Assembly: GCA_036733285.1 (NCBI GenBank)
Contig: DAINAU010000001.1
Coordinates: forward strand, 18,954 to 82,953
Reading direction: 5' to 3'
Length of the DNA stretch: 64,000 nucleotides
DNA from: a bacterium
GTDB lineage: Bacteria; JAGOBX01
The notes under the pieces were generated by a model. That model did no database searches and was not told the DNA's origin. It saw only the letters and a program-made list of their open reading frames with translations. Positions 6,321 through 56,791 of the stretch are shown in pieces (the stretch's first letter is position 1; the number at the start of each line of letters is the position of its first letter). Position numbers and translations under genes: made by a program.

Positions 6321-6352
6321 ATAAAATCAAATTTCCGGCTGCGAGACTTTCT

Positions 6353-8420: not shown

Positions 8421-8443
8421 CTGTTTATCTTGTGTTTTATTTT

Positions 8444-20195: not shown

Positions 20196-21127
20196 TTGAA
20201 ATGTTTGTTAATCAAATCGATTTTCTCGCGCATTATATTATAATCGGAATCCTCCGCCGGGGCGTAACCTTCAAGTCCGCCCGCAAGCGAATTCAAAATA
20301 TTAGAGTTTTTCAAATTAATAAATGCGTCAAGCAATTTTTTTTTCAAATCCTTATTGTCTATAATATTTTTCCCTATCGCTATCGGGTCGCCGGGAATAT
20401 CGTCCGTTTCCTGTAATACCACTATATTTTTGACTTTATCGGGCGATAAATATTTTTCTACCGCGCCTTGATAACAAGCTCCTATTTCCGCGCCTTTCGA
20501 TGATATTATTTTCACAACGTTATCGTGTCCCTTTACAAATTTTACGCTTAAATTTTTTTCAATATCCGCCCCTGATTTGATTATGTCCGCAGCCGGAAAT
20601 AAAAAACCCGACGTCGAATATCTGTCCGTAAAAACCGTTTTAATTTTCTCTCTCTTCTTCAAATCCTCCAGTGATTTTATTCCAGAATCTTTATGCGTGA
20701 TTATTATTCCCTTATAAGAAGGTTTCCCGTTTCGTATTGATTTAACCAGCGGAAGCGTGTTGTTTTTTTTATGCGATTCCACGTATGAATAAGCCCCCAT
20801 TGACGCCAAATCATATTCGATTCCGGTTTTATCAACTATATTTTCGTAATTCGACGCAAATTTTAATATCACCGGCATTTCAATCTGAGCGTGAAGATAA
20901 CTGATTAATGGTTTCATTATGTTTTGTAAATCCATTGCGTTGCTCGAAGGAACAACGGCAAAATTAAGTTTCTGAATCCCCGTGTCGCTTTCAATTTGCT
21001 CCGTTGATTTTTTCGATGCGCCTACTGCGTCTGTTACGTTGTTATCGCCAACATTTCCCGAACAACCCCAAAAAAACAACATAGACAAAATTAACATATT
21101 TTTTTTTATATTTGATATGCCGGACAT
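20192..21127 (-). CDS. Lipoprotein of the PhnD/SsuA-like phosphonate/phosphate-binding family (periplasmic substrate-binding domain).
   Basis: Lipobox ...FFWGCSG. The TVFTDRYSTSGFLFP segment resembles the PhnD binding family. The stop overlaps the histidine-kinase start by 4 bp. Confidence 0.55.
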   Translation of the reverse strand: MSGISNIKKNMLILSMLFFWGCSGNVGDNNVTDAVGASKKSTEQIESDTGIQKLNFAVVPSSNAMDLQNIMKPLISYLHAQIEMPVILKFASNYENIVDKTGIEYDLASMGAYSYVESHKKNNTLPLVKSIRNGKPSYKGIIITHKDSGIKSLEDLKKREKIKTVFTDRYSTSGFLFPAADIIKSGADIEKNLSVKFVKGHDNVVKIISSKGAEIGACYQGAVEKYLSPDKVKNIVVLQETDDIPGDPIAIGKNIIDNKDLKKKLLDAFINLKNSNILNSLAGGLEGYAPAEDSDYNIMREKIDLINKHFK

Positions 21128-21665: not shown

Positions 21666-22004
21666 GCTTTCGCGGTTACAGATTATTAAAACTTTTTGTT
21701 TTTAAGCTCTCGGAAATTGTTTCAATAATTTTAATTTATTAGAACAATTTCTGACTGCGTCCCCGCGACTTGTTTTTGTCGTCTGAATTTGATTGACTTC
21801 TTGCCTTAATTAATATAACTTTTTATCAATTAGCTTTTATAAAAAATATATTAACAGTTTAATTTGATTATAATTAATCCCGAATAATTCATTAGAGGCA
21901 GCGAGAAGTTTCTTAAAAATTAAAATGTTATATTGCGATTGAAATTCGCAATTTATATGAAAACTTCAATTGCATTTTTTAGATTAATACAACAGGAAAA
22001 AAAT

Positions 22005-24227
22005 ATGAATACTAACAAACTAAAACCTTATATTAAATTCGACGATGATAAAAAAAATATTTTTTATATCGCGCAAAATAAAAAATACCGGTATGCCGAC
22101 CCTGAAGAACAAATACGAAGCAAGGCGTATCTTGAATTAATCAATTACGGTTACGAGCCGAAACGCATTGATTTTGAAGTCGGTATTCCGCATAGAACTC
22201 CGAATATACTTGCGGATATTGTCGTTTATAACGATGATGATTTGAAAGACCCGCATATTGTCGTTGAATGTAAAAAACCGGAAGTATCCGAAGGCGAATT
22301 CAAGCAGGCGGTTGAACAGGGATTCGGAAACGCAAATTCGCTCAAAGCAAATTATCTTTGGATTACTTCGGGAATCAAAAACGAATATTTTAACGTAAAA
22401 GATTTTCCGTCAATGGAACGCGATGCAAACCGTTTATCGGATATCCCGCGTTTTGGTCAAAAAAAAATCGATAAAGCGCAGTTTTACAAAGGCGGAATAA
22501 ACGATAAAAGCGAACAGCGTAAAGATTTAACGACTTTAAACGAAAACGAATTAACCCGAATTTTTAAGCAGGCGCACGATGCGCTTTGGGCTGGCGGCAA
22601 ACGCAATCCTTCGGAAGCGTTCGACGAATTCGATAAACTTATTTTTTGTAAAATTTGGGATGAAAAAAAATTGCGTAAAAACGGAGAACCCTACGATTTT
22701 CAGGTTTTTAGCGGCGAGAAAAACGAACTGCTTTTGAAACGCATTCAAACAATTTACGACAAAGGCAAGGAAAGGGACCCTGAAGTTTTTAAAGATAATA
22801 TCCGGCTGAATCCATACGAACTTGAAACAGTAGTAAGTTATCTTGCCGGAATAAATTTAAGCGATACCGACCTTGACAGCAAAGGCAGGGCGTTTGAAAC
22901 ATTTATGGGAAGTTTTTTCCGCGGCGATTTTGGCGCTTTTTTTACGCCGCGTCCTATTGTAAAGTTTATTATTGAAAGTTTGCCGGTAACTAACGAAGAT
23001 ATTGTTTTGGATCCGTCCTGCGGCAGCGGCGGCTTTTTGCTATACGCGCTTGATAAAGTCCGGCGCGCCGCTGATAAAATGTCTGATGACGGCTATTTTA
23101 AAAAAGACAGCTCTAAACACTATAATTTTTGGCATAATTTTGCCGAATCAAATTTATTTGGAATTGAAATTTCCGAAAGCATTGCCCGCACCGCTAAAAT
23201 GAATATGATAATTCACGACGACGGACATACAAATGTCGTATCGCACGATGGACTTGACAGTATTTACTGGATGCGCGAAAAAACAAAAAATAAGGGTTTT
23301 GCGAAAAATAAATTTGATTATATTATCACAAATCCGCCTTTTGGTTCGTCGATTCAGTCGTCGGCTAAAGCGTATGTTAAAGAATACGATTTGGGCAAAA
23401 AAAATTATGAATGGATAGAGTTAAAATTAAAAAATAAAAATCCGAATAAAGACGAAGTTCGGGAGAGGCAAAGCTCTGAAGTTTTGTTTATCGAGCAGTG
23501 CTATAATTTTCTTAAACCGGGCGGAATACTCGCAATGGTAATACCCGACGGCATTTTGACAAATTCAAGTTTACAGTATGTCCGCGGCTGGATTGAAGAG
23601 CATTACAGGATTATTGCGGTTGTGTCAATGCCCCAGTCAGCTTTTCAGGCGACTGGCGCGGGCGTTAAAAGCTCGGTTATTTTTCTTGAAAAATATGAAG
23701 AATCCGAGACCGCGGCTATCCAAAAAATAAAAATTGAATTGCAGGATAAACTATTTGAAAACAAAAAATACGGTCCCTCGATTGAAAAAATTGAACGCGA
23801 AAAAAAAGATACGCTGAAAAATAATTTTGCGAAAATTAAAGAAATTAACGAATCGCTTGATAATCATTTAAAAGCCCTTGAAAATCAAGGAAATATTGAT
23901 AAATCTAAAAAATGCGGACTCGAAAAAAATGCAAAAGATAAAATCAAACAAATTGAAAAATCTGAAGAATACGCCGATTGGCGATGCCGCATTACAGACG
24001 AATTCAACGAGCGGATAAACGCTATTAAAGAAAATCTTCAGGAAGAATTTATCGAATCCGTGAAAAAGAAAATTACGGATTATCCTGTGTTTATGGCGAT
24101 TGCGGAAGACATCGGCTATGACGCGGCAGGCAGACCGACAAATAAAAACGAACTCGAAGATATTGCTAAAGAACTTTTAGCTTTTATCGAATCTGTAAAA
24201 AAAGGAACTGATTCTTTTTTCGCATAA
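22005..24227 (+). CDS. Fused restriction endonuclease and N6-adenine DNA methyltransferase (HsdR_N/Mrr-like PD-(D/E)xK domain plus gamma-class MTase plus coiled-coil C-terminal extension). BcgI-A-like Type IIB/IIG R-M subunit.
   Basis: The likely start is the ATG at 22005 (AGGAAA upstream); the ORF-track frame begins at 21933. The N-terminus has ADIVVYNDD...HIVVECKKP (D...E-x-K). The MTase motif I is LDPSCGSGGFLLYA and motif IV is IITNPPFGSS. An approximately 170-aa Lys/Glu-rich helical tail follows. Confidence 0.7.
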   Translation: MNTNKLKPYIKFDDDKKNIFYIAQNKKYRYADPEEQIRSKAYLELINYGYEPKRIDFEVGIPHRTPNILADIVVYNDDDLKDPHIVVECKKPEVSEGEFKQAVEQGFGNANSLKANYLWITSGIKNEYFNVKDFPSMERDANRLSDIPRFGQKKIDKAQFYKGGINDKSEQRKDLTTLNENELTRIFKQAHDALWAGGKRNPSEAFDEFDKLIFCKIWDEKKLRKNGEPYDFQVFSGEKNELLLKRIQTIYDKGKERDPEVFKDNIRLNPYELETVVSYLAGINLSDTDLDSKGRAFETFMGSFFRGDFGAFFTPRPIVKFIIESLPVTNEDIVLDPSCGSGGFLLYALDKVRRAADKMSDDGYFKKDSSKHYNFWHNFAESNLFGIEISESIARTAKMNMIIHDDGHTNVVSHDGLDSIYWMREKTKNKGFAKNKFDYIITNPPFGSSIQSSAKAYVKEYDLGKKNYEWIELKLKNKNPNKDEVRERQSSEVLFIEQCYNFLKPGGILAMVIPDGILTNSSLQYVRGWIEEHYRIIAVVSMPQSAFQATGAGVKSSVIFLEKYEESETAAIQKIKIELQDKLFENKKYGPSIEKIEREKKDTLKNNFAKIKEINESLDNHLKALENQGNIDKSKKCGLEKNAKDKIKQIEKSEEYADWRCRITDEFNERINAIKENLQEEFIESVKKKITDYPVFMAIAEDIGYDAAGRPTNKNELEDIAKELLAFIESVKKGTDSFFA

Positions 24228-24274
24228 GCTCCGGGGCAGATAAAAATAAGATTTTTACCGCGAACCGGAGCGAA

Positions 24275-25654
24275 ATGAAAGATAGGTTTGATCCGCTGTT
24301 TTATTCCGGCTGGCTTCTTGGTTTTTTTAAAAAATTAAAATTTAAGACTGTCAAGTTAAAAGACTTGACATTGTATCTTAAAAATGGATTTGCGGCTGGA
24401 CATAATGATCAGTCTTTTAACGAAAACGATATTATTCAGATAAGACCAACTAACATTAATTCCGACAATATGCTTGTATTTGATAAAAATATTTATATCA
24501 GCCGTAAAACTTTAAATTTAAAAAAATCTGATGTTTTGATTAAAAATGAAATTTTATTTAATAATACAAACAGTCAAGAATTAGTTGGAAAAACTTCTTT
24601 TTTTGATTTTGATAGTATTAATTTTTGTTCAAATCATATTACGAGGATAATGTGCGGCAATAAAATATTGCCCAAATATCTTTGGATAATTTTAAATTTT
24701 TATCAAAAAAATAAAATATTTTTCAATCTATGCACTAACTGGAATAATCAATCCGGCGTTAATATTAATGTCCTTGCGAATCTTCTTATACCTTTACCGG
24801 AAAAAAACACGCAAGAAAAAATCATATCCATATTTGAGAAATCTATTATCAATAAACAATCCAAAGAATCAAAAGCCCAAAAAATGCTCGATGGAATTGA
24901 CGATTATCTTCTTTCTGAATTGGGAATAAAACTTCCTAAAGAAAAACCAAATATTTTAAAAAACCGTATTTTTAAAACAAGCGTTAAAAATATTTCTGGC
25001 GGCAGGTTCGATCCTATTTATAACGATATATATTACTTAAAATTTGAAGAAAGTATCAAACAATCAAAATATAAATTGAAAAAAATTTTTGAATTATGTT
25101 ATGGGAAATCAGGAGTTGTTTATTCGGTCAACGATGAAGCGAAAGATGGAAAAGGAATATTACGCGCAAATAACATTGATTTATCAACTAATGAACTAAA
25201 TTTGTCAGATATAAAATTTATTTCAAACAATATATTTATTAGCTCTGATTTATTATTAAAAAAAAATGATATTTTGATGTGTTCGGCAAGCGGTAGTAAA
25301 GAACATGTTGGAAAGGTAGCTTATATTTGCGAGGATTTGAATCTATATTTTGGCGGATTTATGATGGTTTTACGCGGAAAAACAAGTATGTTGTTATCTA
25401 AATATTTGTTTGAATTTTTACGGAGCCTTTTTTTTAGAAAATATTTATTTCGTCAATTAGGCGGAACAAATATTAATAATTTAAATTTTCATATGATTTC
25501 CAACTTATTCATTCCCCTGCCTCCAATAGATGTTCAAAATAAAATAGCTGAAGCGATAAAAAAAATACGCGAAGAAGCGAAACGCCTGCGATTTGAGGCG
25601 TCGTCGGAATTAGAAAATGCAAAAAAAGAAATAGAGCGAATGCTTTTAAAATAG
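24275..25654 (+). CDS. hsdS: Restriction-modification specificity (S) subunit with two target-recognition domains.
   Basis: The 459-aa product has an N-terminal RFDPLFY motif, two TRD-like halves separated by a conserved central helix, and a C-terminal conserved helix (IAEAIKKIREEAKRL). Confidence 0.8.
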   Translation: MKDRFDPLFYSGWLLGFFKKLKFKTVKLKDLTLYLKNGFAAGHNDQSFNENDIIQIRPTNINSDNMLVFDKNIYISRKTLNLKKSDVLIKNEILFNNTNSQELVGKTSFFDFDSINFCSNHITRIMCGNKILPKYLWIILNFYQKNKIFFNLCTNWNNQSGVNINVLANLLIPLPEKNTQEKIISIFEKSIINKQSKESKAQKMLDGIDDYLLSELGIKLPKEKPNILKNRIFKTSVKNISGGRFDPIYNDIYYLKFEESIKQSKYKLKKIFELCYGKSGVVYSVNDEAKDGKGILRANNIDLSTNELNLSDIKFISNNIFISSDLLLKKNDILMCSASGSKEHVGKVAYICEDLNLYFGGFMMVLRGKTSMLLSKYLFEFLRSLFFRKYLFRQLGGTNINNLNFHMISNLFIPLPPIDVQNKIAEAIKKIREEAKRLRFEASSELENAKKEIERMLLK

Positions 25655-29247: not shown

Positions 29248-29873
29248 TTATACAAATCCCCCGATTTTATATTTTCTTTATCATCATATATTTTTTTTAT
29301 GATATTGTCAATTTGTTTATGCAAATAAAGAAAATTTTTTTTATTATAAACCGTAAAATCCGAACGCTCGATTTTGTATTTCATCGGCAATTGCGAATTG
29401 ATTCGTTTCAACGCCTCGCTTTTTGAAAGATTGTTTCGTTTCATAAGTCTTTTTAACTGCAAGTATTTTGGACAGACGACTGTTATTATCATATCGGTTT
29501 CAGATTCAAGTCCGGTTTCAAATAATAATGGAATATCAATAAATATAATCGGATTATTCTTCAACGCTTTAATCTTTAAATTGATTTCTTTAATGATATG
29601 CGGATGCGTTATAGAATTTAATTTTTGCAATTTGCTTTTGTCGCTAAAAACAATAGCTCCCAATTGTTTTCTGTCAACGGTTCCGTTTTTTGAGGTTAGT
29701 TTAAATGCGGTCATTATTTTACGGTTTAACGCTTGGCGCGTATTCAATAAATGATGATATATCGCGTCGGAACAAATTACGGGAAAATTTTTCTTTCGCA
29801 AATATTCAAGCGTCTCGGATTTGCCTGAAGCTATGCCTCCGGTAATTCCTATTCTCAATGGTTTGACTTTCAT
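29244..29873 (-). CDS. coaE: Dephospho-CoA kinase.
   Basis: IGITGGIASGKSE P-loop and a 209-aa CoaE-like layout. Confidence 0.85.
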   Translation of the reverse strand: MKVKPLRIGITGGIASGKSETLEYLRKKNFPVICSDAIYHHLLNTRQALNRKIMTAFKLTSKNGTVDRKQLGAIVFSDKSKLQKLNSITHPHIIKEINLKIKALKNNPIIFIDIPLLFETGLESETDMIITVVCPKYLQLKRLMKRNNLSKSEALKRINSQLPMKYKIERSDFTVYNKKNFLYLHKQIDNIIKKIYDDKENIKSGDLYK

Positions 29874-31927
29874 ATTTCGATTTCTATAACAAATGGTTCT
29901 TTTCCTATTCCGAACACGCCGCTTTTCCCTTTTTTTATGACGCTATATTTTAATTTTGATTTTTCAACTTTATATTTCTGATATGCTTTTTTAACGCAAT
30001 CATCAAGCGTATCGCCAGAAATTTTTATTTTCTTCGATTCGTTGATTTCAGTTAAAACCGCATTGCGTTTAACAGGCAGCAGTTTGGATATTAATTCTAT
30101 TTTATCCTCTCCTTCTTTTAATTGCGCGGCGAATATTCTGCATTTGGTTTTTGATTCGCATAGTTTTTCGACAGCGCATTTTTCTTCTCCCGAATCAAGA
30201 AATCTCATAGCCGTTTCTACAGCTTTTTTTTCAATGCTTCCTTCAATAATTATTGATTTTCTGATATTTAACGGATCGATTTGCTCGCTTGTCGCCGAAC
30301 TTGTTTTTATATTCGCCGACGTTTCTCCGGTTATTTTTCCGGAACTGAATCTTGATACGGTTATTCCTGATTTTGTATAAATTACTGAAACGTCGGTCAG
30401 TTCTTCATTGATTTCTTTTGGCAAACCGTTGAACTTAATCATAACTTTAGGCGATATTTTTTTTCTCGCAGAAACTCTCATAGTTCCGGCGTCAGCCGAT
30501 TTGAACTTATCGAGTTCTTCAATCTTACCGTTTATGTAATCTATATTTTTTTCAAGTTTTATCCTGAACTGAATACAATTCTTGATTTTTAAATCAAGTT
30601 CTTTTGAGGTGTCGCCAATATCTCTTTTTTCCGTAAGTTCTTTAAACGTCTGATTTATTTTTTTCAGTTCGCGGTCGGCTTCGTTTTTTGAATTGATTAA
30701 TTTTGATTTTTCGATGTTCTCTTTTGAAACTGTTTTCAATGAAATTTCAGTCTGCGTTTCTCCGTCTCCGATTATTCCGCATACCACGCTTTTCCCTGAT
30801 TCTATCAATCCGCCGCAAATTAGTTGTTTGTTTCCGTCGAGTATTATATCGCCCGTTGCGGAAATGGAACTTGAAATTATTTCTTCCGAAACAAGTATAT
30901 TGGATTCCGAGGTCAGTTTGGAATTATATATTCCCGAAGTTATAATATTTCCGGTTACTATAAACGGTTTGGAATCGCAATTTGAAATTTTTCCGGAAAC
31001 GTATAAATCGCCTTTCACGCTCACTCCGGTATTTACAAGATCTCCAATTATATATAAATCTTTCCCGGTCTTTAAATATCCGCAGTTTGAAACCGAACCG
31101 TTCACAATCAACGAGTTTTCGCATATAATATCTTTCGGATAATTTGACACGGATTTATCTATGCTTTGAATTGCGGAAACTTCCAATTTTTCATCAATCC
31201 ATCTTACCCTTCCGTTAATCTTTGAAAAATAAGAATTACGGTTTTTGGATATTAAAATATTTTCTCCGGGTTCCAAACTTTTAAATTGCTTGCTTTTCAA
31301 TACGGGCAGCAAAGTAGCGGAGATTATTTGTCCGGGTATTACTCTTCTGTAATAATATAAGTTCGATAATATTTCCGACGAATTAGCGTCAAATAAAAAA
31401 CGGTCAAAACAATAAAAATTTAATTTGTCAATGTTTCTTAACTGATTTATTATTTTTTCGGCTTCAGCGGGATTTAACCCTACAAACGAATCGTCTATTG
31501 TTTCGCTTGATTTTACTTCGGAAGATTTTATATCTTTAAGAACCCCCGACAATTGACTGTCGAACTCTTCGTCAATAACATAAAGATATTTTGATAAAGT
31601 AAGTTTTTTAGTTGATTCGTCGTAGCCGATTTTTCCGATGTGTTTTTTTAAAACCGCAAATTGCTCTTTTTTGGTTTTTAGATATTCGGGCGGAATATTC
31701 GATAATTCCACGATTACGGTCGTATTGTCGATTTTACAAACGCCCGGAACCTGAGTTTTATCGTCGATTATATCGTAAAGAATATTATCCGTAAAATAAT
31801 ATAATCCGGCTACAAGTTCGGATATGTCGCCCGCTTGACTGGCGTTCTTTATATTTTTTACCGCATACGCCGTGATCTGTTCAATAAACGAATAATCGAG
31901 TTCAGCCGAAAATCTGATTTCATTCAT
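29870..31927 (-). CDS. FapA/DUF342-family protein (beta-solenoid repeats plus coiled coil).
   Basis: Repetitive GD/GN-rich beta-helix segment (GDLYIIGDLVNTGVSVKGDLYVSGKISN...ATGDIILDG), then a coiled coil and a C-terminal small domain. Confidence 0.45.
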   Translation of the reverse strand: MNEIRFSAELDYSFIEQITAYAVKNIKNASQAGDISELVAGLYYFTDNILYDIIDDKTQVPGVCKIDNTTVIVELSNIPPEYLKTKKEQFAVLKKHIGKIGYDESTKKLTLSKYLYVIDEEFDSQLSGVLKDIKSSEVKSSETIDDSFVGLNPAEAEKIINQLRNIDKLNFYCFDRFLFDANSSEILSNLYYYRRVIPGQIISATLLPVLKSKQFKSLEPGENILISKNRNSYFSKINGRVRWIDEKLEVSAIQSIDKSVSNYPKDIICENSLIVNGSVSNCGYLKTGKDLYIIGDLVNTGVSVKGDLYVSGKISNCDSKPFIVTGNIITSGIYNSKLTSESNILVSEEIISSSISATGDIILDGNKQLICGGLIESGKSVVCGIIGDGETQTEISLKTVSKENIEKSKLINSKNEADRELKKINQTFKELTEKRDIGDTSKELDLKIKNCIQFRIKLEKNIDYINGKIEELDKFKSADAGTMRVSARKKISPKVMIKFNGLPKEINEELTDVSVIYTKSGITVSRFSSGKITGETSANIKTSSATSEQIDPLNIRKSIIIEGSIEKKAVETAMRFLDSGEEKCAVEKLCESKTKCRIFAAQLKEGEDKIELISKLLPVKRNAVLTEINESKKIKISGDTLDDCVKKAYQKYKVEKSKLKYSVIKKGKSGVFGIGKEPFVIEIEI

Positions 31928-33325: not shown

Positions 33326-34306
33326 TTATTTTATATTTTCAATTAATTCTTTAAAAATAACGCTATTAACGACATATTTGGAAGTATTATTCGGCTCCTT
33401 AACATCGGAATAAATCGCTTCCCAATGTCTGCCGGTTCTAATTTCCGAATAAGTATCATAAATAATAACATATAATATTTTTTCAATATTAAATTTTTTC
33501 TTTAATAAATTTTCATCGGCAGTTTCTTTTAACATAAAAATTCTTTTAGCGTCTATTGCTTGGTTATCCTGCCCGCCGCCAGCCATATTCTGTTCTTTAT
33601 GCGCGCCAATAATTAATGTATTTTTAATTTTACATATTACATCGGGATATTTTAATTCGGTAACGCCCAAAATATTAAGTATTCCGTCAATTTTTTTTAC
33701 TTCTTTTTCGTCAATAAGCCAATCCCCGCTATTTGATATTTCTTTTTGTAATAAAAGTTTTTTGGAAAGCAAATCAAAAACAATTTTATCAAACATTCCC
33801 TTTCTTCGAGTAGGCGATTTAAGAATATATTTTGATTCTAAATTACTTAACATTATAGCAAAAAAATGATAATCAATATTTTTTATTATTTCAAATAATT
33901 GTAATGATTTTAACTGGGTTAATAATAATTCTTCATCTTTAAGCAATGAGTCTATTTGATTTAAACCTGAAATATTTAAAAGTAACCAACAAAATGATTC
34001 GATACCATTAACATTATTTCTTTTTTCTTTTATTTCTTTTAAAACAAGTTTTATATTTTCAATTGCAATATTTAATATTTTCTCGTCAATATTATCAATT
34101 GATAATTCATCTTTTTTTTTCAAATCATATAAATAAACGATATAATTTTTTATTTTATTTATTGCGTTTTTGTATTCTTCGCTGTAACGAAATTCAAATC
34201 CCATATCTTTAAAAATTTCTTGATAAACTGGATTTAGAAAAGCAATATTATTTATTCTATATTGTTTATTATTAAATTTATCAAAACATTCTTGCGGCAG
34301 TAGCAT
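33326..34306 (-). CDS. Hypothetical protein. Candidate restriction endonuclease of the two-MTase R-M module.
   Basis: The 326-aa product has no motif I recognise. It lies 10 bp downstream of, and in the same orientation as, two DNA MTase genes. Confidence 0.3.
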   Translation of the reverse strand: MLLPQECFDKFNNKQYRINNIAFLNPVYQEIFKDMGFEFRYSEEYKNAINKIKNYIVYLYDLKKKDELSIDNIDEKILNIAIENIKLVLKEIKEKRNNVNGIESFCWLLLNISGLNQIDSLLKDEELLLTQLKSLQLFEIIKNIDYHFFAIMLSNLESKYILKSPTRRKGMFDKIVFDLLSKKLLLQKEISNSGDWLIDEKEVKKIDGILNILGVTELKYPDVICKIKNTLIIGAHKEQNMAGGGQDNQAIDAKRIFMLKETADENLLKKKFNIEKILYVIIYDTYSEIRTGRHWEAIYSDVKEPNNTSKYVVNSVIFKELIENIK

Positions 34307-34316
34307 AAGGACACCT

Positions 34317-35768
34317 CTAATTAAAACTTAACTCTAATTGATTTGATTTTTCACCAATACAGTTTGTATTTAAAAAGTCTAAAACTTTATTTGCATTTTT
34401 TTCTGTTATTAGTTTAGAAAATCGAACTTTCATTTTTGGGGATAATTTTATCGGATATGTTTCTAATATTTTTTTAGCCTGCGTTAATCCTAAATATTTT
34501 CTCACATATTCGCTATTAGAATATTTATATGAAGTCATAAATTCACTGTCCGTAATTTCACGAAGATATTCTAAAATCAAATTAAAATAATCTTTAATTA
34601 TTTTTTGCTCGTCGATTAAAATATTTTCTTCAAAAAATATCTGAATTGGGTGAGTTCTAAATTTGCTTTTAGTTACTAAAATTCCATCGCAATCAAAAAT
34701 CTGTTTTGTAATATACAATCCAGCGCGTCCATCTTGAGAACCGGTATCGACAGTTCTAATAAATAAAATATTATTTTTGATTGTATTATAAATCAAATCA
34801 TTTACTTTTCTTTCTGTCTTTACATATTGTCCATTTTCAAATTTATTAGCGTCTAATAAATCAATAATTTTATTGCCGTTTATTATTGTTTTTTCTTCAA
34901 GATAAAACGAAAATTTAATTTTTTCGTTTTGAGTATATAAATCTAAAAAATCTGACAGTTCGTTACCTGCCCTATATGAATTTTTATATTTTAAAATATA
35001 TTTCTTTTCTACAGTTTTACAGTTAATTTTAACGCCATTAAAAATAATATCTTTTTTGTTTGTTTCATTTTTTCGTGTAAAATTACAAACCACAACATTT
35101 GTTCCAGTAAATTCAAAAATTTCTTTTTCAAATATTATTGCTTTATTCATAGTATAATACTGAAAGAAATCTTTCCGTATTTTATTTGAAACAGATGCGC
35201 CAAATAAAAAATTTGATGGAATTATATAAATCATTTTATATATTTTATTCCTTAAATCATTAATTAAAGCCAATTGATATAAATCTTGATATCCTTCATT
35301 AGATTTATCATTAAAATATTCAAAATTGGTTTTGAATCTTTCTTTGTTTTTTACAATATATCCTAAATATAAATATGGTGGATTTGTTATATGAAAAACC
35401 GGCTTCTGGAATTTTTTTAAAAATTTAATTGGATAATTTTTGATAGTATCATTTAAAAAAATATTTTTTTTTGCAATATCTTCCGGTATTCCTTTCGCCA
35501 TAGTATTTAATAATAGTTTATCAAAATTTTCTTTTTGAATTTCAAACATATAAATATTGTTTTTGAAAAATTCTATTTTTTTTTCAGGTTCTATATAATC
35601 TAAAATTGGCAGTATGAGATTTCCTTCTCCGGCATAAAGATCAATCCATACATACTCATTTATATTATCTTTTATCCAAGGAAAAATATATTCTTTAAAT
35701 AATTCAATTGGAGTAAAGTGTTCTCCATAAAATCGTTTGGTTTCTTTATTATTTAAAATTTCGTTCAT
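34317..35768 (-). CDS. Gamma-class N6-adenine DNA methyltransferase with a C-terminal recognition region.
   Basis: GEHFTP (motif X), IDLYAGEGNL (motif I) and HITNPPYL (motif IV). The 483-aa product overlaps the upstream MTase stop as ATGA. Confidence 0.75.
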   Translation of the reverse strand: MNEILNNKETKRFYGEHFTPIELFKEYIFPWIKDNINEYVWIDLYAGEGNLILPILDYIEPEKKIEFFKNNIYMFEIQKENFDKLLLNTMAKGIPEDIAKKNIFLNDTIKNYPIKFLKKFQKPVFHITNPPYLYLGYIVKNKERFKTNFEYFNDKSNEGYQDLYQLALINDLRNKIYKMIYIIPSNFLFGASVSNKIRKDFFQYYTMNKAIIFEKEIFEFTGTNVVVCNFTRKNETNKKDIIFNGVKINCKTVEKKYILKYKNSYRAGNELSDFLDLYTQNEKIKFSFYLEEKTIINGNKIIDLLDANKFENGQYVKTERKVNDLIYNTIKNNILFIRTVDTGSQDGRAGLYITKQIFDCDGILVTKSKFRTHPIQIFFEENILIDEQKIIKDYFNLILEYLREITDSEFMTSYKYSNSEYVRKYLGLTQAKKILETYPIKLSPKMKVRFSKLITEKNANKVLDFLNTNCIGEKSNQLELSFN

Positions 35769-36454
35769 TTTATTTCTTTTAAGCGTATTTTCGTTATTTT
35801 ACAAAAATCTGAATCAATTTCAATCCCGATATACTTTCTGTTTAATTTTTTACAAGCGACAAGCGTTGTTCCGACTCCGGCAAAACAATCCAATACATTA
35901 TTGTTTTCTTGTGAAGCAATTTGTATGATATTTTCAATTAATTTAATTGGTTTTTGAGTAATATGCTGTTTCTTATCTTTTTTAAAATTTGATTGCGGTT
36001 GCGCAAATTCCCAAACATCGTTATATAATAATTTTTCTGAATTATTTTGTTCCCAAATGTTTAATTTGTTTTTTCCTTTTGCAAACATCAACAATCCTTC
36101 CCAATTATTTCTTAATCTGTCAAAAGGAGTAAATTTGTAATAATTTTTTTTATACCATACAATAAAATTTTTGTAGGCAAAACAATTTTTTTCTCCAATA
36201 TCTATGATATAACTGCTTAGTCTTACATCGCAAAAGCAAAAAAAAAATCCTTTATGAATTTTTTCTGAAAGTATAGCAAAGATATCAGATAACCAATTAA
36301 TATAATCATTTAGTGTTTTCCATTGATTATCCCATTTTATTGATTTTAGGTTGTTATAATACGGTGGATCAATTATAATTAAGTCAATAGAATTATCGTC
36401 AATTTTTTTTAACAATTTCTGGCAATCGCCGCAATACAAAATATTTGTTTTCAT
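35765..36454 (-). CDS. Beta-class DNA methyltransferase (N4-cytosine or N6-adenine; the DPPY motif precedes the FxGxG motif).
   Basis: LIIIDPPYY (motif IV) lies N-terminal and LDCFAGVGTTLVA (motif I) lies C-terminal, which is the beta-class permutation. The product is 229 aa. Confidence 0.8.
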   Translation of the reverse strand: MKTNILYCGDCQKLLKKIDDNSIDLIIIDPPYYNNLKSIKWDNQWKTLNDYINWLSDIFAILSEKIHKGFFFCFCDVRLSSYIIDIGEKNCFAYKNFIVWYKKNYYKFTPFDRLRNNWEGLLMFAKGKNKLNIWEQNNSEKLLYNDVWEFAQPQSNFKKDKKQHITQKPIKLIENIIQIASQENNNVLDCFAGVGTTLVACKKLNRKYIGIEIDSDFCKITKIRLKEIK

Positions 36455-50025: not shown

Positions 50026-50691
50026 TTAATCTATATATTCAATATCATTTTCAAATTTTTTTATCAGGTAAGGAACTCCGAGTTCTTTGCGGGTCGATAA
50101 GAAATACTTTTTATACTTGATGGAAAATGAAACCGGATGCGACGGTTTATTGTTTTTTTGTTTAATAACAATTCCTTTCGAACTTGACGCGGCTTTTTGA
50201 GCCGTTTCAATCAAATCAGATTTCAATGTTATTCTTGATAAAAACGTTAAAACGAAAAAATCTTCGTTTAATAATCCGCTCATAGCCCGTTTAATAGAGG
50301 TTATAAGCGGAAGATTATATTTTTCATTTTCAACGGCATAGACGAAATCGCAATTTATCTTTGATAAATAATCTTCGGTTTTTTCTCCGTAGACAAAGAT
50401 AATTTTAGAATACGGATTTTCAACTGAAGCTATGACGTCATTGATTTCTCTTAGCGCCTTTAGCGCGGTTCGGTTGTCGCATTCTTTAGCCGCGACAATA
50501 ATCAAAGCCGAATTGCGGCGAATATTTATTTTTCTGTTCAAAAATATATTTTTTTCAAAATCGCCGATACTCGAAACAACCGCGACAGGCGAATTGTCTT
50601 TAGTCAAAATAATATTCTCGCCTTTTTTCAAATTTTCCGTTATTTTCAATAATTCTTTTCGCGCAAAAGTGATATTTAATATTTTTTTCAT
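50026..50691 (-). CDS. Hypothetical protein whose N-terminus resembles Phd/YefM antitoxins, fused to a roughly 170-aa unknown domain.
   Basis: ITFARKELLKITENLKKGENIILTKDNSPVAVVSSI resembles the Phd/YefM N-terminal fold. It is the last gene of the chemosensory-like operon. Confidence 0.4.
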   Translation of the reverse strand: MKKILNITFARKELLKITENLKKGENIILTKDNSPVAVVSSIGDFEKNIFLNRKINIRRNSALIIVAAKECDNRTALKALREINDVIASVENPYSKIIFVYGEKTEDYLSKINCDFVYAVENEKYNLPLITSIKRAMSGLLNEDFFVLTFLSRITLKSDLIETAQKAASSSKGIVIKQKNNKPSHPVSFSIKYKKYFLSTRKELGVPYLIKKFENDIEYID

Positions 50692-50786
50692 ATAAAGAAT
50701 TTAAAAACTTTATTACTATACATTGTTATACGCCGTTGCATTTAAATGGGCTGAATAGTAAGGAAACTTTGCCTTTTTTATCCGTG

Positions 50787-51983
50787 TCAAGATTCAAATT
50801 TCAATTTAATTATCTCAGACTGCAAATCCTCGACTGTTTTCGATAATGTGTTCAACTTCAAGTTTATATTTTTTATATTTTCATTTCCGCCGTTTATTCT
50901 GTCGAAAACTTTTGACAATTGCAGAGAATCCCGTTGCATTGTGTTTCTTATATTGTCGTCGATTTCAAAAAACCCGGATATAAACGCCGGAATCTGAATC
51001 AAATAAGAGTTCAATTGTTTAAAAATATCGGCGTTTTTTTCAAATTCAGTTTCAAAAGTTTTCGATGATTCAAACACAACCATCAGCGTATTCTTAATCT
51101 GCATTACTTCGTTTTTAATCGAATCGTTCATATTCTTTATGTTTTGCAAATTTTCTTCCCGCTCAAATTCGGAAGAATGTTCCGCCCCTTCCGCAGCGAT
51201 GTTTTCCTGATTGGAAAAAATATATGCGTTTAAAATATTAATCGACTGCCGTTCAAGATTGGTTATGATATTTGTGATTTTAGCTATTACTGATTCTTCC
51301 TTAGATTTGAAATCATTTTCAAAACTAACTATGTTGTCAAATATTTTATCAAAATCTTTTGAAATCAAAATTAATTTATTTAAATGTTCGGACAATTTGG
51401 TTTTATTTTTAAATTTACTTTCAATATGATTGTTAGAATTAGTAAAATTAATCTGAATCGTTTTTAAAATCGTCTCGGTCTCAAATAAAAAATCAGCCAC
51501 TTCTCCTGCTTTTTTCAGAATAAAACCGTTGTTGGTTTGACCGTTTTTCAAATCAGTGACTGATGCAACCTTAAATGATTCGAGTTCGGCTCTGAAGTCG
51601 TTTGCCGTTTTATCAAATTCTTTAAGCTTTTGTTCGGCGGTAGAATTTTCGGATTTTATTTTTTTTATATCCGAATACATTTGATTTAGAAGCATATTGA
51701 AATCCCGGGAATCAACAATATTAATATTATCATTTTTTTTAAGAGAATAATTTTTAACATAATCGTCTGAAATATCCTGAAATTTTAATTTCAAACATTT
51801 TTCATAAACATAATCAAAACTTAACGAACACGCTAACACCGTAATAACAGGCGAAATAATGATAAACAAATTCAGAAACGGCGAATAATTCAAGGAAATA
51901 TAATAATAGCAACCGAAATTAATTCCTAAAGATACGACGGCAAGAACTAAAAATAAATATAATTTTATGCGTTTATTAATCAT
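50787..51983 (-). CDS. Membrane-anchored coiled-coil protein.
   Basis: Two N-terminal TM helices, then about 330 aa that are heavily helical and coiled-coil-rich. Confidence 0.45.
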   Translation of the reverse strand: MINKRIKLYLFLVLAVVSLGINFGCYYYISLNYSPFLNLFIIISPVITVLACSLSFDYVYEKCLKLKFQDISDDYVKNYSLKKNDNINIVDSRDFNMLLNQMYSDIKKIKSENSTAEQKLKEFDKTANDFRAELESFKVASVTDLKNGQTNNGFILKKAGEVADFLFETETILKTIQINFTNSNNHIESKFKNKTKLSEHLNKLILISKDFDKIFDNIVSFENDFKSKEESVIAKITNIITNLERQSINILNAYIFSNQENIAAEGAEHSSEFEREENLQNIKNMNDSIKNEVMQIKNTLMVVFESSKTFETEFEKNADIFKQLNSYLIQIPAFISGFFEIDDNIRNTMQRDSLQLSKVFDRINGGNENIKNINLKLNTLSKTVEDLQSEIIKLKFES

Positions 51984-52010
51984 AATAATTTCAAAAAACC
52001 TCCGAAAAAA

Positions 52011-53603
52011 TCAAGCGCTGAAATCAGGTTCCAGAACCGGAGTCAATTCGTCGTCGAATATGGTATAACCAATAAAATAATCCGGCATCTTATTTTTCAA
52101 GTCGCGGACCGCGAAATTTTTTACAATAGCGTCTGTTTGCTCGATTATTTCATATACAGGCATAGCCAATTTCGCCGAACTGTTTGAAAATAAAATCGCC
52201 CTTTTGTATTCGTTTAAATTCTCGTATTTATGACCAAGACACTGCCAGATTGGAATTTTATCGTTTTTATTATTAAAAAACAATTTATTATTTTCGGATA
52301 TTTCAAAATTATCCGATTTTCCGCTCTCATAATAAATAATATCTTCAATATAATCAAGCGTGAACGCAAGCAGACTTCCGTTTTTGCAGAGTCTCGCGAA
52401 CACAAGCTGAGTCAAAATAATCTGAAACGGTATTCTGATAATAACGGTAGTTCCTTTGCCGGATTCGGATTTTAAAGCTAAAGTCCCTCCGATTTTTTCA
52501 ATATTGTTTTTTACGGCGTCCATACCTACGCCGCGTCCGGACGTATCGCTTACTTTTTCGGCGGTGCTGAATCCGGGCATAAATATCAGAGCGTAAATTT
52601 CTTCCTGACTCATTTTGCCCGCGTCAGACTCTTCGATAATTTTTTTTTCCAACGCCTTTTTCAGTATTTTTTCCGAATCAAGTCCTTTCCCGTCGTCAAT
52701 CATTTTTATAACGACATAATTTCCCGTTTGCTGAGCGCGAATCTCTATATTTCCAGTCTCGTTTTTATTTTTTGATTTTCTTATATCCGGCTCTTCTATG
52801 CCGTGATCGACTGAATTTTTTATCAAATGAATAAAAACCTCTCCTACGGTATCGGCTATTTTTTTGTCGATAACGACATTGTTGTCGTTTATAGTAAATA
52901 CGATTTTTTTTCCGAGTTTTGCCGCAAGGTCTCCGACTATGGAAGGAAATCTGTTAAATACCTGTATTAAAGGCATAAATGTAATTTTTGACAAACTGCC
53001 GTTTATCCGGTTGACTATATTGCTGATATTTCCAGAAATTTCCGTAAGCGAATCGTCAAGACCGCTTTTTTCTGAAAGCTTCAGAAGTTTATTTTTGTTT
53101 ATTGAAAGTTCGGTTATAATAGCCGCAAGCTGGTCGATTATGGCGCTGTCGATTTTGATAAACTCATTTATTTTTTTTTGTTTTGCAATAATGAAATCCT
53201 TATTTTTTTGGATTGACAAAATAAATCTTCTTAAATTAGAATAAGCCGGAGAAGAAATTTTTTCCGAATATTTATCAGCTTCTTCAATAAATTCAATTTC
53301 AGAATATATTACCCAGTTATTAGGTTCGACTCCATTGGCAAGATTAATTTCAGCGGCTAAATCCTGAAATAACAGCGAAAGCGAATCGAAATCAGAATCG
53401 CTTGAAATTCCGTTTTCCAGTAAAGAAACGAGAAGATGAATTTTATTTAACGCGCGCGAAGCTCCTGATTTGATTGAATCCGGAAATCTCAACAATGATT
53501 TATAAATATTCTCTTCTTTCTGAAAATATTCCGGCAGCGTAACGGAAGCGTCTAAATTATTTATAAACGAAGAATTTACAATCCGTTCCAGTTTTTTATT
53601 CAT
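52011..53603 (-). CDS. cheA: CheA-type histidine kinase core lacking the Hpt domain (P3 dimerisation, P4 HATPase_c and P5 CheW-like domains).
   Basis: HLIKNSVDHGIEEPDIRK...FMPGFSTAEKVSDTSGRGVGMDAVK...GKGTTVIIRIPF (CheA N, G1, F and G2 boxes). The segment just before it, ITFMPLIQVFNRFPSIVGDLA, resembles the region upstream of the CheA ATP lid. A CheW-like C-terminal domain follows. No HTIKG-containing Hpt domain is present. Confidence 0.8.
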   Translation of the reverse strand: MNKKLERIVNSSFINNLDASVTLPEYFQKEENIYKSLLRFPDSIKSGASRALNKIHLLVSLLENGISSDSDFDSLSLLFQDLAAEINLANGVEPNNWVIYSEIEFIEEADKYSEKISSPAYSNLRRFILSIQKNKDFIIAKQKKINEFIKIDSAIIDQLAAIITELSINKNKLLKLSEKSGLDDSLTEISGNISNIVNRINGSLSKITFMPLIQVFNRFPSIVGDLAAKLGKKIVFTINDNNVVIDKKIADTVGEVFIHLIKNSVDHGIEEPDIRKSKNKNETGNIEIRAQQTGNYVVIKMIDDGKGLDSEKILKKALEKKIIEESDAGKMSQEEIYALIFMPGFSTAEKVSDTSGRGVGMDAVKNNIEKIGGTLALKSESGKGTTVIIRIPFQIILTQLVFARLCKNGSLLAFTLDYIEDIIYYESGKSDNFEISENNKLFFNNKNDKIPIWQCLGHKYENLNEYKRAILFSNSSAKLAMPVYEIIEQTDAIVKNFAVRDLKNKMPDYFIGYTIFDDELTPVLEPDFSA

Positions 53604-55605
53604 TTATGGTAAAATCCTGCATTTTGATTCTTAACGAATCAGCAATATCCTTTAATTTATTAACTGAAATATTCAATTGTTTTATAGTTTCGCGCTCTTC
53701 ATAAATCGCTTTAGCGGTAGACGTGATTAAATTCGACATTTGCGAAGTAACCTGACTGATATTTTCCGTAGAAGCGAAAATCGTTTTACTTTCCTTATCG
53801 ATATCTGAAATCATATTCGATATATCATTAATCATAACCTTATCCGTATTAACCTTCTCGACGATTTCATTCATCGAGTTCATTAAAATATTCGAAGTCA
53901 TTATTCCGGATTCGATATTTTTCAAACCGGCTTTTGTGGAATTGAATATTTTCTCAATTAACACGTTGTTGTTATCCATCAGTTTCATTATATTGGACGA
54001 ATAATCGGATATGAATTTGCTTAAATTGCGGACCTCGACCGCTATGTTTGTAATTGATTTATCCTGTTGTCCGCCTTTTTGGGCTATGACGTTTACGCTG
54101 TAAGCGAGCATCCGCGTTCTTGTGGCTATGTCTTCAATAACCTTTATAATATCCTTGATTTCAAAAGAAAACTTATTCAATTCGGTAACTAACGCGTCGG
54201 TCTGTTTAAATCCGTCTTCGATATTTTCCATTTTTGACAATAAATTATTGAACGAGTCTTTTCCTTCGGTAGTCACATTCTCGGTCGTTTTCGCGTTTTG
54301 ATTCAAGGTAACCACGTTTTGAGTCATTTGTCCAAGCGTATCGACAAAACGTTTCAATCTGTCAGCGGTAGCGTTGACGTCCATAGAATTATTTAAAACT
54401 CCGACTTCGATTTCATTTATGTTTCCGGAAATCGTGTCTATCGTAGTGGTGGTGTGCCTTGAAAAATTCAACAAATTATGATTTTCATTTGTGATGGATT
54501 TTATTATTCCGTTTATTGTCGAAATAATATTGTTGAGTTCGTCCACCATTGTGTCGATTCCATCGCCGAGAATCTTAATTTCATCGTTTCTACGCATTTT
54601 TATTTTCTCGGTCAAAATTCCTTTGGAAATCTTTTGGAGAGCCGGAACCATTGAAATAATAGGTTTGGCAATATTTTTTCCGAATAAAAAAGCGAGTATT
54701 AAACCAGGTATTGAGAATCCGATAAAATAATAGTAAGCGTTTTCCTTTACGTCGTTTTTTATGTTTTTCTGAATTACTATAAGATTTTGTTTGATTTTGT
54801 CTATTTCTTCGGTTTTCTGTTTTATTGATTCCTCTTGAAGCCGGTTTTTTTCAAGAACTATTTTCTGTTTAAAATTCGCCTGCATTGTATCTATTTCTTT
54901 ATATAAATTTTCAAGCGAAAATCCTAAAACAACAACGCCCCATAATTCGTTGTTTATTACAATAGGTTGAACTATTTTATAAATATTTATTTTAAACTTC
55001 GCGTCTAAATAATCTTCGCCCTGGATTTTTTTTGTTTTAAAAGATTTATCCACTAACCCGTCGGATATGTTCTTGCCTTCAAATTCGGAATTTTTATAAT
55101 AAGTCTCATCGCCGGATTTTTTCTTTTTTTCCGTAAAATAAATCGACGTTTTATAAAACATAGCGCTCTTCTGATTATCAATCAAAGCCGCGTATACGAC
55201 CGTATTGTCGTTTTTAAAAATTTCGTTGAACGCGGTAACTCCGAAACCGAAATCATAATTTGAAATCGCATTTCCAAGCTGTCCGGAAAGATTTGTTATT
55301 ATGGCTTTTCCTTTTTCCATAGTGGCTTGAGTCAAATTATTTTTTAAAAGCTCGGTTGTCTCCGTGAACTGTTTGTTTAACAGCGTGTCGATTTGATCAA
55401 TAGTGTATTTGAAATTCTTGTTGATTAAATTTTCGCTGTTTCCAATAAAAGATTTATTTTGATTATTTACAATATTCATGCTGCCGCGGAAATTAAACCA
55501 GATAAGCAGCGAAATAATTATCATTACAAGACCGAGAATAAATATGGTAAATTTTCCGGCTAATGTGCGCGTTAAAAAAGTGAAAAATTTCTTAAATATT
55601 TTCAT
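53596..55605 (-). CDS. Methyl-accepting chemotaxis protein (two TM helices, periplasmic sensor, HAMP, MCP signalling domain).
   Basis: TM1, a roughly 260-aa periplasmic region, TM2, HAMP, then a signalling domain with a degenerate highly-conserved-domain motif (RMLAYSVNVIAQKGGQQDKSITNIAVEVRNLSKF). Confidence 0.8.
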   Translation of the reverse strand: MKIFKKFFTFLTRTLAGKFTIFILGLVMIIISLLIWFNFRGSMNIVNNQNKSFIGNSENLINKNFKYTIDQIDTLLNKQFTETTELLKNNLTQATMEKGKAIITNLSGQLGNAISNYDFGFGVTAFNEIFKNDNTVVYAALIDNQKSAMFYKTSIYFTEKKKKSGDETYYKNSEFEGKNISDGLVDKSFKTKKIQGEDYLDAKFKINIYKIVQPIVINNELWGVVVLGFSLENLYKEIDTMQANFKQKIVLEKNRLQEESIKQKTEEIDKIKQNLIVIQKNIKNDVKENAYYYFIGFSIPGLILAFLFGKNIAKPIISMVPALQKISKGILTEKIKMRRNDEIKILGDGIDTMVDELNNIISTINGIIKSITNENHNLLNFSRHTTTTIDTISGNINEIEVGVLNNSMDVNATADRLKRFVDTLGQMTQNVVTLNQNAKTTENVTTEGKDSFNNLLSKMENIEDGFKQTDALVTELNKFSFEIKDIIKVIEDIATRTRMLAYSVNVIAQKGGQQDKSITNIAVEVRNLSKFISDYSSNIMKLMDNNNVLIEKIFNSTKAGLKNIESGIMTSNILMNSMNEIVEKVNTDKVMINDISNMISDIDKESKTIFASTENISQVTSQMSNLITSTAKAIYEERETIKQLNISVNKLKDIADSLRIKMQDFTINE

Positions 55606-56791
55606 AATTTATCAAATTGTTTCCGTCGATGATTTTAATTTTTTCCGATTTATACAAATATACCATATCCTTAACCGTTAAATCAAGAAAAATATCGTCC
55701 GGATTAATTTTTTTAATTTCAATAATCTCGTCGATAAACAAACCAGCGATTCCATTTGCCGTGTTCAACAAAAGAATCTTATTCTGATTATCGCAATGTT
55801 TTGATATTTTTACTACTGGCGCGGCTCTGTCAAGATATCTTATCAATCCAATGTTGCGTTTAAACGGATGCCAGAAAATTTTCTCGCTTAATTCGACTAT
55901 TTTAATGATATTAAGACAAACTACGGCGAATAATTCTCCGCTTTTTTTTACAACCACGGATAAAAGATATTTTTCCGGCAATGTGACGGCGTCGGTCTTT
56001 TTCTTTTTTTCGGAATAATCGCGCAAATCTACGTTATCAACCCTGTAATCCTGAACCGCGTCAATATTCAATTCTATGGCTTTTTTCAAAGCCGTTTCTG
56101 TCTGTTTGTCGGAATCCAAAAAGAATTCGAGTTTATAATCGCATAGTTCCGCGGTAAAATCCTCTTTGCCAAGATAATCCCTGTCCGGTATCATTCTGAT
56201 AATTTGAACGCCGGATTGGTCGATAGACATAAGAAACTGAAACATTTTTATATCCGCGAACATATTGGTCTTATCAAAAATAACCGCGACTTTTCTACAA
56301 GTGAAATTTTTAAATTTCTTTTTATACTCGTCTATTTCCTTTTCGGTAAAAACAATTTTATCCGGAATTTTATATTTGGATTTTTGAACGCCGGATTTAC
56401 CCTCGATGATTTCAGTCAATCTGGTTTTGTAATCGTCAAAATTAAATGTTTCATCAATATCCGGGTCCGCTTTAATTTTTTCTATGCTTTCCGCGACAAG
56501 ATAAATTCCCTCGTTCAAACATTGTTTTAATTTATCCTCGAAAGATATTTTCCCGTCCCTCAAAGCTCCGAACGCGTTTTCCAAAGAATGAGTCAGCTTT
56601 GACAGATTGGTCAAACCGCATGACCCCGAATTTCCTTTTATCGTATGAACGTATCTGAAAATCGTATGTATCGGCTCGATATTCGAACTGTCGCTTTCGT
56701 ATTCTTTCATACAGGCGGCGGTTCCGGCAAGCTGGTCTTCAACCTCGTTAAGAAATATTGATAAATACTGTTTTCTTTTCGCGGGATCCAT
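55592..56791 (-). CDS. Hpt (CheA P1) domain protein fused to a middle domain and a C-terminal CheW-like domain (CheA3-like).
   Basis: IHTIFRYVHTIKGNSGSCGL (phospho-accepting His in HTIKG) and a C-terminal CheW-like region (YLLSVVVKKSGELFAV...GLFIDEIIEI). Its stop overlaps the MCP start. Confidence 0.75.
   Translation of the reverse strand: MDPAKRKQYLSIFLNEVEDQLAGTAACMKEYESDSSNIEPIHTIFRYVHTIKGNSGSCGLTNLSKLTHSLENAFGALRDGKISFEDKLKQCLNEGIYLVAESIEKIKADPDIDETFNFDDYKTRLTEIIEGKSGVQKSKYKIPDKIVFTEKEIDEYKKKFKNFTCRKVAVIFDKTNMFADIKMFQFLMSIDQSGVQIIRMIPDRDYLGKEDFTAELCDYKLEFFLDSDKQTETALKKAIELNIDAVQDYRVDNVDLRDYSEKKKKTDAVTLPEKYLLSVVVKKSGELFAVVCLNIIKIVELSEKIFWHPFKRNIGLIRYLDRAAPVVKISKHCDNQNKILLLNTANGIAGLFIDEIIEIKKINPDDIFLDLTVKDMVYLYKSEKIKIIDGNNLINYENI

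Follow-up and report, generated by a model that had tools for sequence, protein, structure and literature searches.

A compact chemosensory gene cluster built around an apparently bipartite CheA

How would a chemosensory gene cluster signal if the phosphorylation site of its CheA kinase lay on one polypeptide and the catalytic domains on another, with no response regulator gene at hand? This question is raised by five consecutive minus-strand open reading frames (ORFs) that span positions 50026-56791 of a 64-kb stretch of bacterial DNA on the 104-kb metagenome contig DAINAU010000001.1. The 64-kb stretch is referred to below as the window; 10 kb past its right end was also examined, making 74 kb in total. 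The coordinates of the five ORFs match exactly those given in a preliminary description of the locus, which had proposed that CheA is split here. The split is borne out: the first gene (the Hpt gene) encodes a 399-aa P1 protein that ends in a CheW-like domain, the third encodes a 530-aa kinase with P3, P4 and a P5-like domain, and the gene for a 669-aa chemoreceptor, a methyl-accepting chemotaxis protein (MCP), lies between them. Start/stop overlaps, also pointed out in that description, link the Hpt gene to the MCP gene (14 nt) and the MCP gene to the kinase gene (8 nt), and the three genes are translationally coupled. The gaps that follow measure 27 nt from the kinase gene to a gene for a 398-aa membrane protein, 95 nt from there to a gene for a 221-aa protein, and 33 nt from the latter to a P-type ATPase gene. 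We conclude, with a probability of roughly 0.6, that a bipartite CheA lies at the centre of the cluster, which forms a self-contained and insulated chemosensory module.

Two CheA halves and the receptor between them

The 399-aa protein opens with a P1 (Hpt) domain, matched by Pfam Hpt with an E-value of 9e-12, in which an HTIKGNS motif contains His49, the predicted phosphorylation site. His49, Lys52, His68 and Glu71 are invariant in an alignment of five family members. A PDB profile search matched the Hpt-family profile to the P1 structures of Thermotoga maritima CheA (E about 2.5e-15), and AlphaFold2 modelled residues 1-130 as a confident helical bundle with a predicted local distance difference test score (pLDDT) of 85-94. 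Regions of the module were further compared by hhalign with a profile of 60 full-length CheAs. The P1 region aligned to CheA P1 at 99.6%, and the middle domain (residues 133-268), which the preliminary description had left for profile comparison, fell on the P2 region of CheA (82%, E 1e-5); the Pfam match to P2 is below threshold (E 0.0019). This P2-like stretch of only about 135 aa is all that separates P1 from the CheW-like domain, and the HATPase region is absent from the protein in Pfam.

The C-terminal domain of the 399-aa protein (residues 269-399) fell on CheA P5 in the hhalign comparison (40%, E 3e-4). Its Pfam CheW match is also below threshold (E 0.0013), and Pfam CheW matches four of the five family members. 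A hidden Markov model (HMM) of this domain was built from eight Hpt-family members and run against a background of 5777 ORFs from 159 unrelated che loci. It gave 18 matches with E<1e-3 (best 7e-6), 15 of them CheW-sized ORFs, and all seven matches that were checked proved to be bona fide CheW proteins (Pfam E 1e-28 to 5e-97). Because its HMM retrieves bona fide CheW proteins, we regard the domain as CheW-like; in sequence it seems to resemble free CheW more than CheA P5. Models of the P2-like and CheW-like parts, built from five-sequence alignments, had a pLDDT below 50 and were not used as evidence.

The kinase is matched by NCBIfam CheA (E 2e-68 over residues 140-406) and by HATPase_c (E 4e-17); its matches to H-kinase_dim and CheW are weak, with Pfam CheW below threshold at E 0.039. 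The kinase core aligned at 100% to CheA residues 292-549, the P3-P4 region, in the hhalign comparison. The kinase profile also matched T. maritima CheA P3-P4-P5 (PDB 1b3q) in one stretch, positions 147-496, with an E-value of 3.5e-78, and this alignment takes in about 100 residues of P5. Four ATP-binding boxes are invariant in the kinase family: N (HLIKNSxDHG), G1 (DxGxGL), F (PGFST) and G2 (GRGVGMD). The first ~140 residues matched no family and no PDB entry. A degenerate P1 or P2 was considered for this N-terminal domain and rejected, as it shows no similarity to any CheA region or to any domain of the Hpt protein.

The receptor encoded between the two halves has, by hydropathy, a first transmembrane helix at residues ~11-43, a periplasmic domain of ~250 aa, a second transmembrane helix at ~290-320, a HAMP domain and a signalling hairpin. 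Residues 339-658 align over about 320 aa to an HMM of 37 canonical MCPs (E 7e-23), and the arms of the hairpin are ~153 and ~158 aa long, corresponding to about 22 heptads each. The periplasmic domain had no Pfam or PDB match. The tip of the hairpin diverges strongly from canonical MCP tips (Table 1), and the diverged tip is common to the family receptors in three related loci, L011, L013 and L098. Another related locus, L099, carries a gene (4463-6799, minus strand) for a 778-aa NIT-HAMP-MCP with a fully canonical tip, 3 kb from its split module; this gene adjoins hybrid-cluster protein and glutamate synthase genes. The canonical tip of this neighbouring MCP suggests that a conventional Che pathway exists in at least that lineage. 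By its sequence features, the split module with its diverged tip suggests a separate, insulated extra pathway.

Table 1. Positions of the module genes, their sub-regions and the adjoining 221-aa gene within the window
Feature	Position	Strand	Basis or remark
399-aa P1(Hpt)-P2-like-CheW-like protein	55592-56791	-	phospho-accepting half of the split CheA
P1 region	56396-56791	-	
P2-like region	55988-56395	-	
CheW-like region	55595-55987	-	
His49 codon in HTIKGNS	56645-56647	-	predicted phosphorylation site; computed position
669-aa transmembrane HAMP chemoreceptor	53596-55605	-	Pfam HAMP E 9e-7, MCPsignal E 6e-15, both above threshold
Receptor HAMP domain	54532-54684	-	Pfam, above threshold
Diverged receptor hairpin tip IATRTRMLAYSVNVIAQKGGQQDKSITNIAVEVRNLS	54013-54126	-	compared with canonical MCP tips
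530-aa kinase	52011-53603	-	kinase half of the split CheA; NCBIfam CheA, PDB 1b3q profile alignment
Orphan N-domain of kinase	53184-53603	-	
P3-P4 region of kinase	52404-53183	-	
P5-like region of kinase	52014-52403	-	
398-aa conserved fourth component	50787-51983	-	transmembrane helices 5-29 and 33-59, then an all-helical body
Invariant block N[LV]ERQSINILNAYIFSN ... EENLQNIK.MN	51126-51260	-	lies on both sides of a variable turn; family alignment
221-aa protein	50026-50691	-	sub-threshold Phd-like N-terminus and MocA-like NTP-transferase region

The Hpt-MCP-kinase order recurs in every visible related locus (L013, L094, L098, L099, L101, L003 together with L096, and L005 together with L010-12), and the order, including the 398-aa gene, is kept across lineages that share only 31-95% identity. 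The family is small. An exhaustive profile search of 1.84 billion representatives yielded about five full-length clusters of the 399-aa protein at 50% identity, and the remaining matches were P1 domains of ordinary or multi-Hpt CheAs. The 399-aa protein has four close clusters, and the kinase has three before ordinary CheAs begin; two scans of metagenome contigs returned no further relatives. A full-length relative was found in only one of 185,579 species-representative genomes, which is labelled Candidatus Dependentiae bacterium, a label that is not confirmed. The Dependentiae are reduced, non-flagellated endosymbionts. The genes of the window include sensor kinases, a GGDEF protein, a SpoIIE phosphatase and cofactor biosynthesis, a content that looks free-living and not like that of a reduced endosymbiont, and the relative's label is therefore treated with caution.

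The fourth protein, the output and the competing explanations

Wherever the junction can be read, which is the case in four lineages (the window, L096, L010-12 and L094/95), the kinase gene is followed immediately by the 398-aa gene, and we count the product of the latter as a genuine fourth component for this reason. The protein is 36-90% identical across these four lineages (41% to the L010 copy), and a search of 5.8 billion proteins found only five clusters, four of which are counted as relatives. A CheZ/CheC-type phosphatase was considered and rejected for it: inspection by eye revealed no fitting DxxxQ/ExxN motif among its invariant residues, and it has no Pfam CheZ match. Neither Pfam nor NCBIfam gave the protein a family match, and a PDB profile search with it found nothing.

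The preliminary description had counted two uncharacterised proteins in the module, and the 221-aa protein does not keep its place there. It has no counterpart downstream of the module in the relatives L010 or L096, and it is rejected as a member on that ground. Its match to Phd_YefM covers residues 3-47 only and scores 22 bits against a Pfam cut-off of 29.8. A Phd/YefM antitoxin was rejected as well, given the sub-threshold score and the neighbours, which are the 398-aa gene and the P-type ATPase gene and not a toxin gene. Residues 84-221 resemble a MocA-like NTP transferase (TIGR03310, E 6e-9) without the usual N-terminal nucleotide-binding part.

None of the window ORFs of at least 100 aa encodes a receiver domain, CheW, CheR or CheB. 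Searches by tblastn with two receiver types likewise found no receiver domain in the window, and the 10 kb past its right end contains no receiver domain, cheW, cheR or cheB. The preliminary description had reported that cheY, cheB and cheR are lacking in cis, in agreement with these searches, and had allowed for a cheY-cheB-cheR set just downstream of the five genes; a P-type ATPase gene is found there, not che genes. Separate cheW, cheR and cheB genes are missing from all related loci too, and CheC and CheD are absent from every locus of the family. The relatives differ in what lies beside the Hpt gene. In L013 and L101, a 121-aa cheY is located directly upstream of it, and the product is matched by the NCBIfam CheY model and best by archaeal and T. 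maritima CheY (E ~1e-33). In L005-L009, a divergently transcribed gene for a receiver protein with an N-terminal HTH_17 domain lies beside the Hpt gene. It is through adjacency only that this regulator would be linked to the module, and the regulator gene seems to have moved around between lineages. No adjacent regulator was found in L003, L098 and L099. In two lineages (L005 377-4118 and L008 1-1759), the divergent neighbours of the Hpt gene form a conserved trio that comprises the HTH_17-receiver regulator, with its unusual domain order, a 171-174-aa single-transmembrane protein and, in L005, an 878-aa TPR protein.

Judged from these sequences, a response regulator is still the most likely output, with its gene elsewhere in the source genome, because a cheY or receiver-HTH_17 gene adjoins the module in relatives, His49 is invariant and a P2-like region is retained. 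The two uncharacterised proteins had been thought to stand in place of a response regulator, and this is probably not so, given the cheY of L013 and L101 and the receiver-HTH_17 gene of L005-L009.

In the working that we propose, an extracytoplasmic ligand would act on the periplasmic domain of the 669-aa receptor and control the kinase, which would be dimerised via P3 and docked via its P5-like domain. At the receptor tip, the CheW-like domain of the 399-aa protein would sit beside P5 in place of a free CheW, and this docking would tether P1-P2 beside the ATP site of P4. P4 may then phosphorylate His49 in trans, by analogy with known systems. A response regulator would dock on the P2-like region and receive the phosphoryl group; this could be the CheY at the operon head or the divergent receiver-helix-turn-helix (HTH) protein in sister lineages, and would be a protein encoded outside the 74 kb in the source genome. 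The 398-aa protein would be an obligatory partner, and most plausibly, if speculatively, binds the kinase N-domain as a membrane anchor, an array organiser or a second input. We suspect this contact because both the protein and the N-domain are orphan and they co-occur.

Several observations weigh against a module of this kind. The P2 assignment is weak, since the Pfam match is sub-threshold and is seen in two of five members only, and an HMM search with the P2 region gave a best E-value of 0.015. The C-terminus of the kinase is colinear with P5 but reached only 19.5% (E 1.2e-3) in the hhalign comparison, and the isolated P5-like domain found no match with E<1e-3 in the background ORFs. The CheW-like domains of the 399-aa protein and the kinase do not detect each other. 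The AlphaFold2 models beyond P1 are of low confidence and provide no structural support for a P5/CheW pairing or for a contact between the 398-aa protein and the N-domain; the shallow alignments cannot support structural inference outside P1. A response regulator was not found in the window or in the 10 kb beyond, and the output in the source organism is unobserved. A free CheW could also be encoded elsewhere in the genome.

How else might the cluster be explained? In a narrowed form of the alternative output suggested in the preliminary description, the output could bypass a regulator if the 398-aa protein were itself the effector, controlled by binding or phosphorylation from the split kinase. 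The absence of a receiver domain within the 74 kb would fit, as would the three related loci (L003, L098 and L099) that also lack an adjacent regulator, and the 398-aa protein is the sole non-Che component that is always present and carries an invariant polar motif. Yet His49 and the surrounding catalytic residues of P1 are invariant, the P2-like docking region is kept, a cheY or receiver-HTH gene lies beside the module in two sublineages, and the 398-aa protein has no detectable catalytic or output domain. Orphan regulators encoded elsewhere are moreover common for Che systems, as in the signalling of Myxococcus xanthus Che3 to CrdA described in PMC3147164, and we judge a regulator-independent output distinctly unlikely. 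The same protein might instead be a second, sensor-less, diverged MCP-like transducer that co-assembles with the 669-aa receptor. It has two transmembrane helices joined by a minimal loop and followed by about 340 aa of helix, which the AlphaFold2 model, all-helical and of low confidence (pLDDT below 50), breaks at residues 259-269. Its strongest conservation flanks the turn, as in MCP tips, and its N-terminal arm is about 70 aa longer than the C-terminal arm, which may leave room for a HAMP-like segment. Against this, the comparisons gave no support to a diverged MCP: the protein is missed by the canonical MCP HMM, its hhalign comparison with the family receptor gave 0.3%, and Pfam at E-values up to 10 returned generic coiled-coil noise only, without MCPsignal or HAMP. 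Foldseek, run on the low-confidence model, found nothing below E 0.1. A transducer role for the 398-aa protein is thus doubtful.

It is also conceivable that the cluster no longer functions, being either an assembly artefact or what a rearrangement or frameshift has left of a che operon in a reduced genome. The CheW, P2 and P5 assignments score below Pfam thresholds, and the closest named genome carries the unconfirmed Candidatus Dependentiae label, that of a group of reduced endosymbionts. However, independent assemblies show the identical architecture, as do lineages with identities as low as 31%, a whole receptor gene and not a frameshift separates the CheA halves, and the many sensory and biosynthetic genes of the window are unlike those of a reduced genome. 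The nonsynonymous divergence (dN) is far below the saturated synonymous divergence (dS) for all four module genes; because of this, together with the invariant catalytic residues, a decaying remnant is in effect excluded, and decay or artefact as a whole is highly improbable. More speculative than the bipartite CheA module favoured here, and to be held tentatively at long odds, is that the locus represents an undescribed class of four-protein module, in which a CheW has captured P1-P2, the tip is redesigned for insulation, and the orphan membrane protein pairs with the orphan N-domain in a new branch for input or output, such as an output that needs no regulator or a co-receptor without a sensor.

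Comparison with known chemosensory systems

The preliminary description had likened the locus to CheA3/CheA4 of Rhodobacter (Cereibacter) sphaeroides, encoded in cheOp3, and the likeness is apt. In both systems, a P1...CheW protein without a working kinase is paired with a partner that carries P3-P4 without P1 or P2, followed by P5 in CheA4 and by a P5-like domain here, and the two are encoded in one operon with a dedicated receptor. The R. sphaeroides cheOp3 operon also encodes CheW4, CheR3, CheB2 and CheY6, whereas the module here has no cheW, cheR or cheB and adds the orphan kinase N-domain and the 398-aa protein. CheA4 phosphorylates CheA3 in trans (PMC3591291, PMC10542144). CheA3 is very large and keeps a degenerate Hpt, P2, and dimerisation and HATPase remnants, together with CheY6-P phosphatase activity (PMC10542144); the 399-aa protein, in contrast, is compact, with only the P2-like region between P1 and CheW and no kinase remnants. 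The array is cytoplasmic in R. sphaeroides (PMC10542144), whereas the receptor here is transmembrane. A survey calls CheA3/CheA4 unique and restricted to Rhodobacteraceae (PMC10542144), and the nearest full-length relatives of the module proteins are Thermotoga, archaeal and clostridial CheAs. Orthology with the Rhodobacteraceae pair was rejected in view of these relatives and of the ~135 aa between P1 and CheW. Because CheA3/CheA4 orthologues are reported only in Rhodobacteraceae and the nearest relatives here lie elsewhere, we infer from the sequences that the module arose independently.

Split kinases are infrequent: one study's count, as cited in PMC3591291, was 11 of 481 CheAs in complete genomes. 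Some CheAs have the Hpt domain as a separate gene in the operon, and these are read as a two-protein CheA in the survey mentioned above (PMC10542144). The module resembles this type in that P1 is separate from the kinase and both are encoded in one operon, and differs in the position of the receptor gene, between the halves, and in the P2-like and CheW-like domains that the Hpt protein has in addition. The chemotaxis core of the Thermotoga/Bacillus/archaeal class provides another point of reference, since the best matches for P1, for P3-P4 and for the relatives' CheY are from T. maritima or archaea, and the receptor arms seem to resemble the long receptors of this class. Unlike that core, CheA is split here, the loci contain no free CheW, CheR, CheB, CheC or CheD, and the receptor tip is diverged. 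M. xanthus Che3 is described as signalling to the transcription factor CrdA (PMC3147164), and, as far as that account describes the system, it has no cheY in the operon and a DNA-binding regulator as its output, to be compared with the divergent receiver-HTH_17 gene of L005-L009. The CheA of Che3 is nevertheless unsplit and accompanied by CheW, CheB and CheR, and the relatives' regulator has HTH_17 N-terminal to the receiver and is not of the NtrC type.

The CheA3/CheA4 kind of partition seems to have a second case in this cluster, one that is independent and much more compact, and with two such examples, the division of CheA between a bare kinase and a protein for both substrate and coupling looks recurrent. 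From modelling, it has been proposed that responses can be ultrasensitive or bistable when the kinase is split (PMC3591291). The compact P1-P2-CheW protein can be seen as a natural experiment on combining P1 delivery with array coupling. A system of four proteins without CheW, CheR or CheB may suit minimal reconstitution, and the 398-aa protein and the kinase N-domain are candidates for new components of chemosensory arrays.

Other features of the window and of related loci

Scans for terminators and promoters gave counts near the shuffled expectation, and a search of the window and four related loci for Rfam families, rRNA included, gave no match. The G+C content drops to 23% at 34-36 kb, whereas the rest of the window is at about 33%; the dip lies within a minus-strand region (33326-36454) that holds an N6_Mtase gene, an N4/N6 DNA methylase gene and a 326-aa ORF without assignment. 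This low-G+C region is probably an acquired restriction-modification island. Two other restriction-modification loci encode a Type I-like methylase with a specificity subunit (21933-25654, plus strand) and Eco57I-like methylase and TaqI_C pieces (7434-9163, minus strand).

Other genes of the window encode sensory proteins. A SpoIIE-type PP2C phosphatase (9367-10908) and a GAF-GGDEF cyclase (12336-14114), both on the minus strand, have a HAMP domain at the same position, residues ~205-255, a similarity that points to paralogous transmembrane sensor modules with different outputs. At 18108-21127, a PAS-HisKA kinase gene is accompanied by a phosphonate-binding-protein gene. The minus-strand ORF at 3-6083 runs off the start of the window and encodes more than 2027 aa, with TPR/YfiO-like repeats followed by alpha-2-macroglobulin domains (MG2, bait region and A2M).

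Past the right end of the window, the segment L097 (55-3599) contains an IS66 transposase fragment, BipA and a 200-aa N_methyl (prepilin-type) protein adjoining a CreD-like membrane protein; apart from the N_methyl protein, nothing near the module points to a pilus or pseudopilus. In the distant relative L098, the module adjoins a minus-strand gene (238-4212) for a 1324-aa NACHT-domain protein. A 685-aa protein encoded in the window at 29870-31927 (minus strand) combines a FapA beta-solenoid with a C-terminal Jag_N domain, and a shorter FapA gene is found in L003, where STAS and GGDEF genes accompany it immediately upstream of the Hpt gene.

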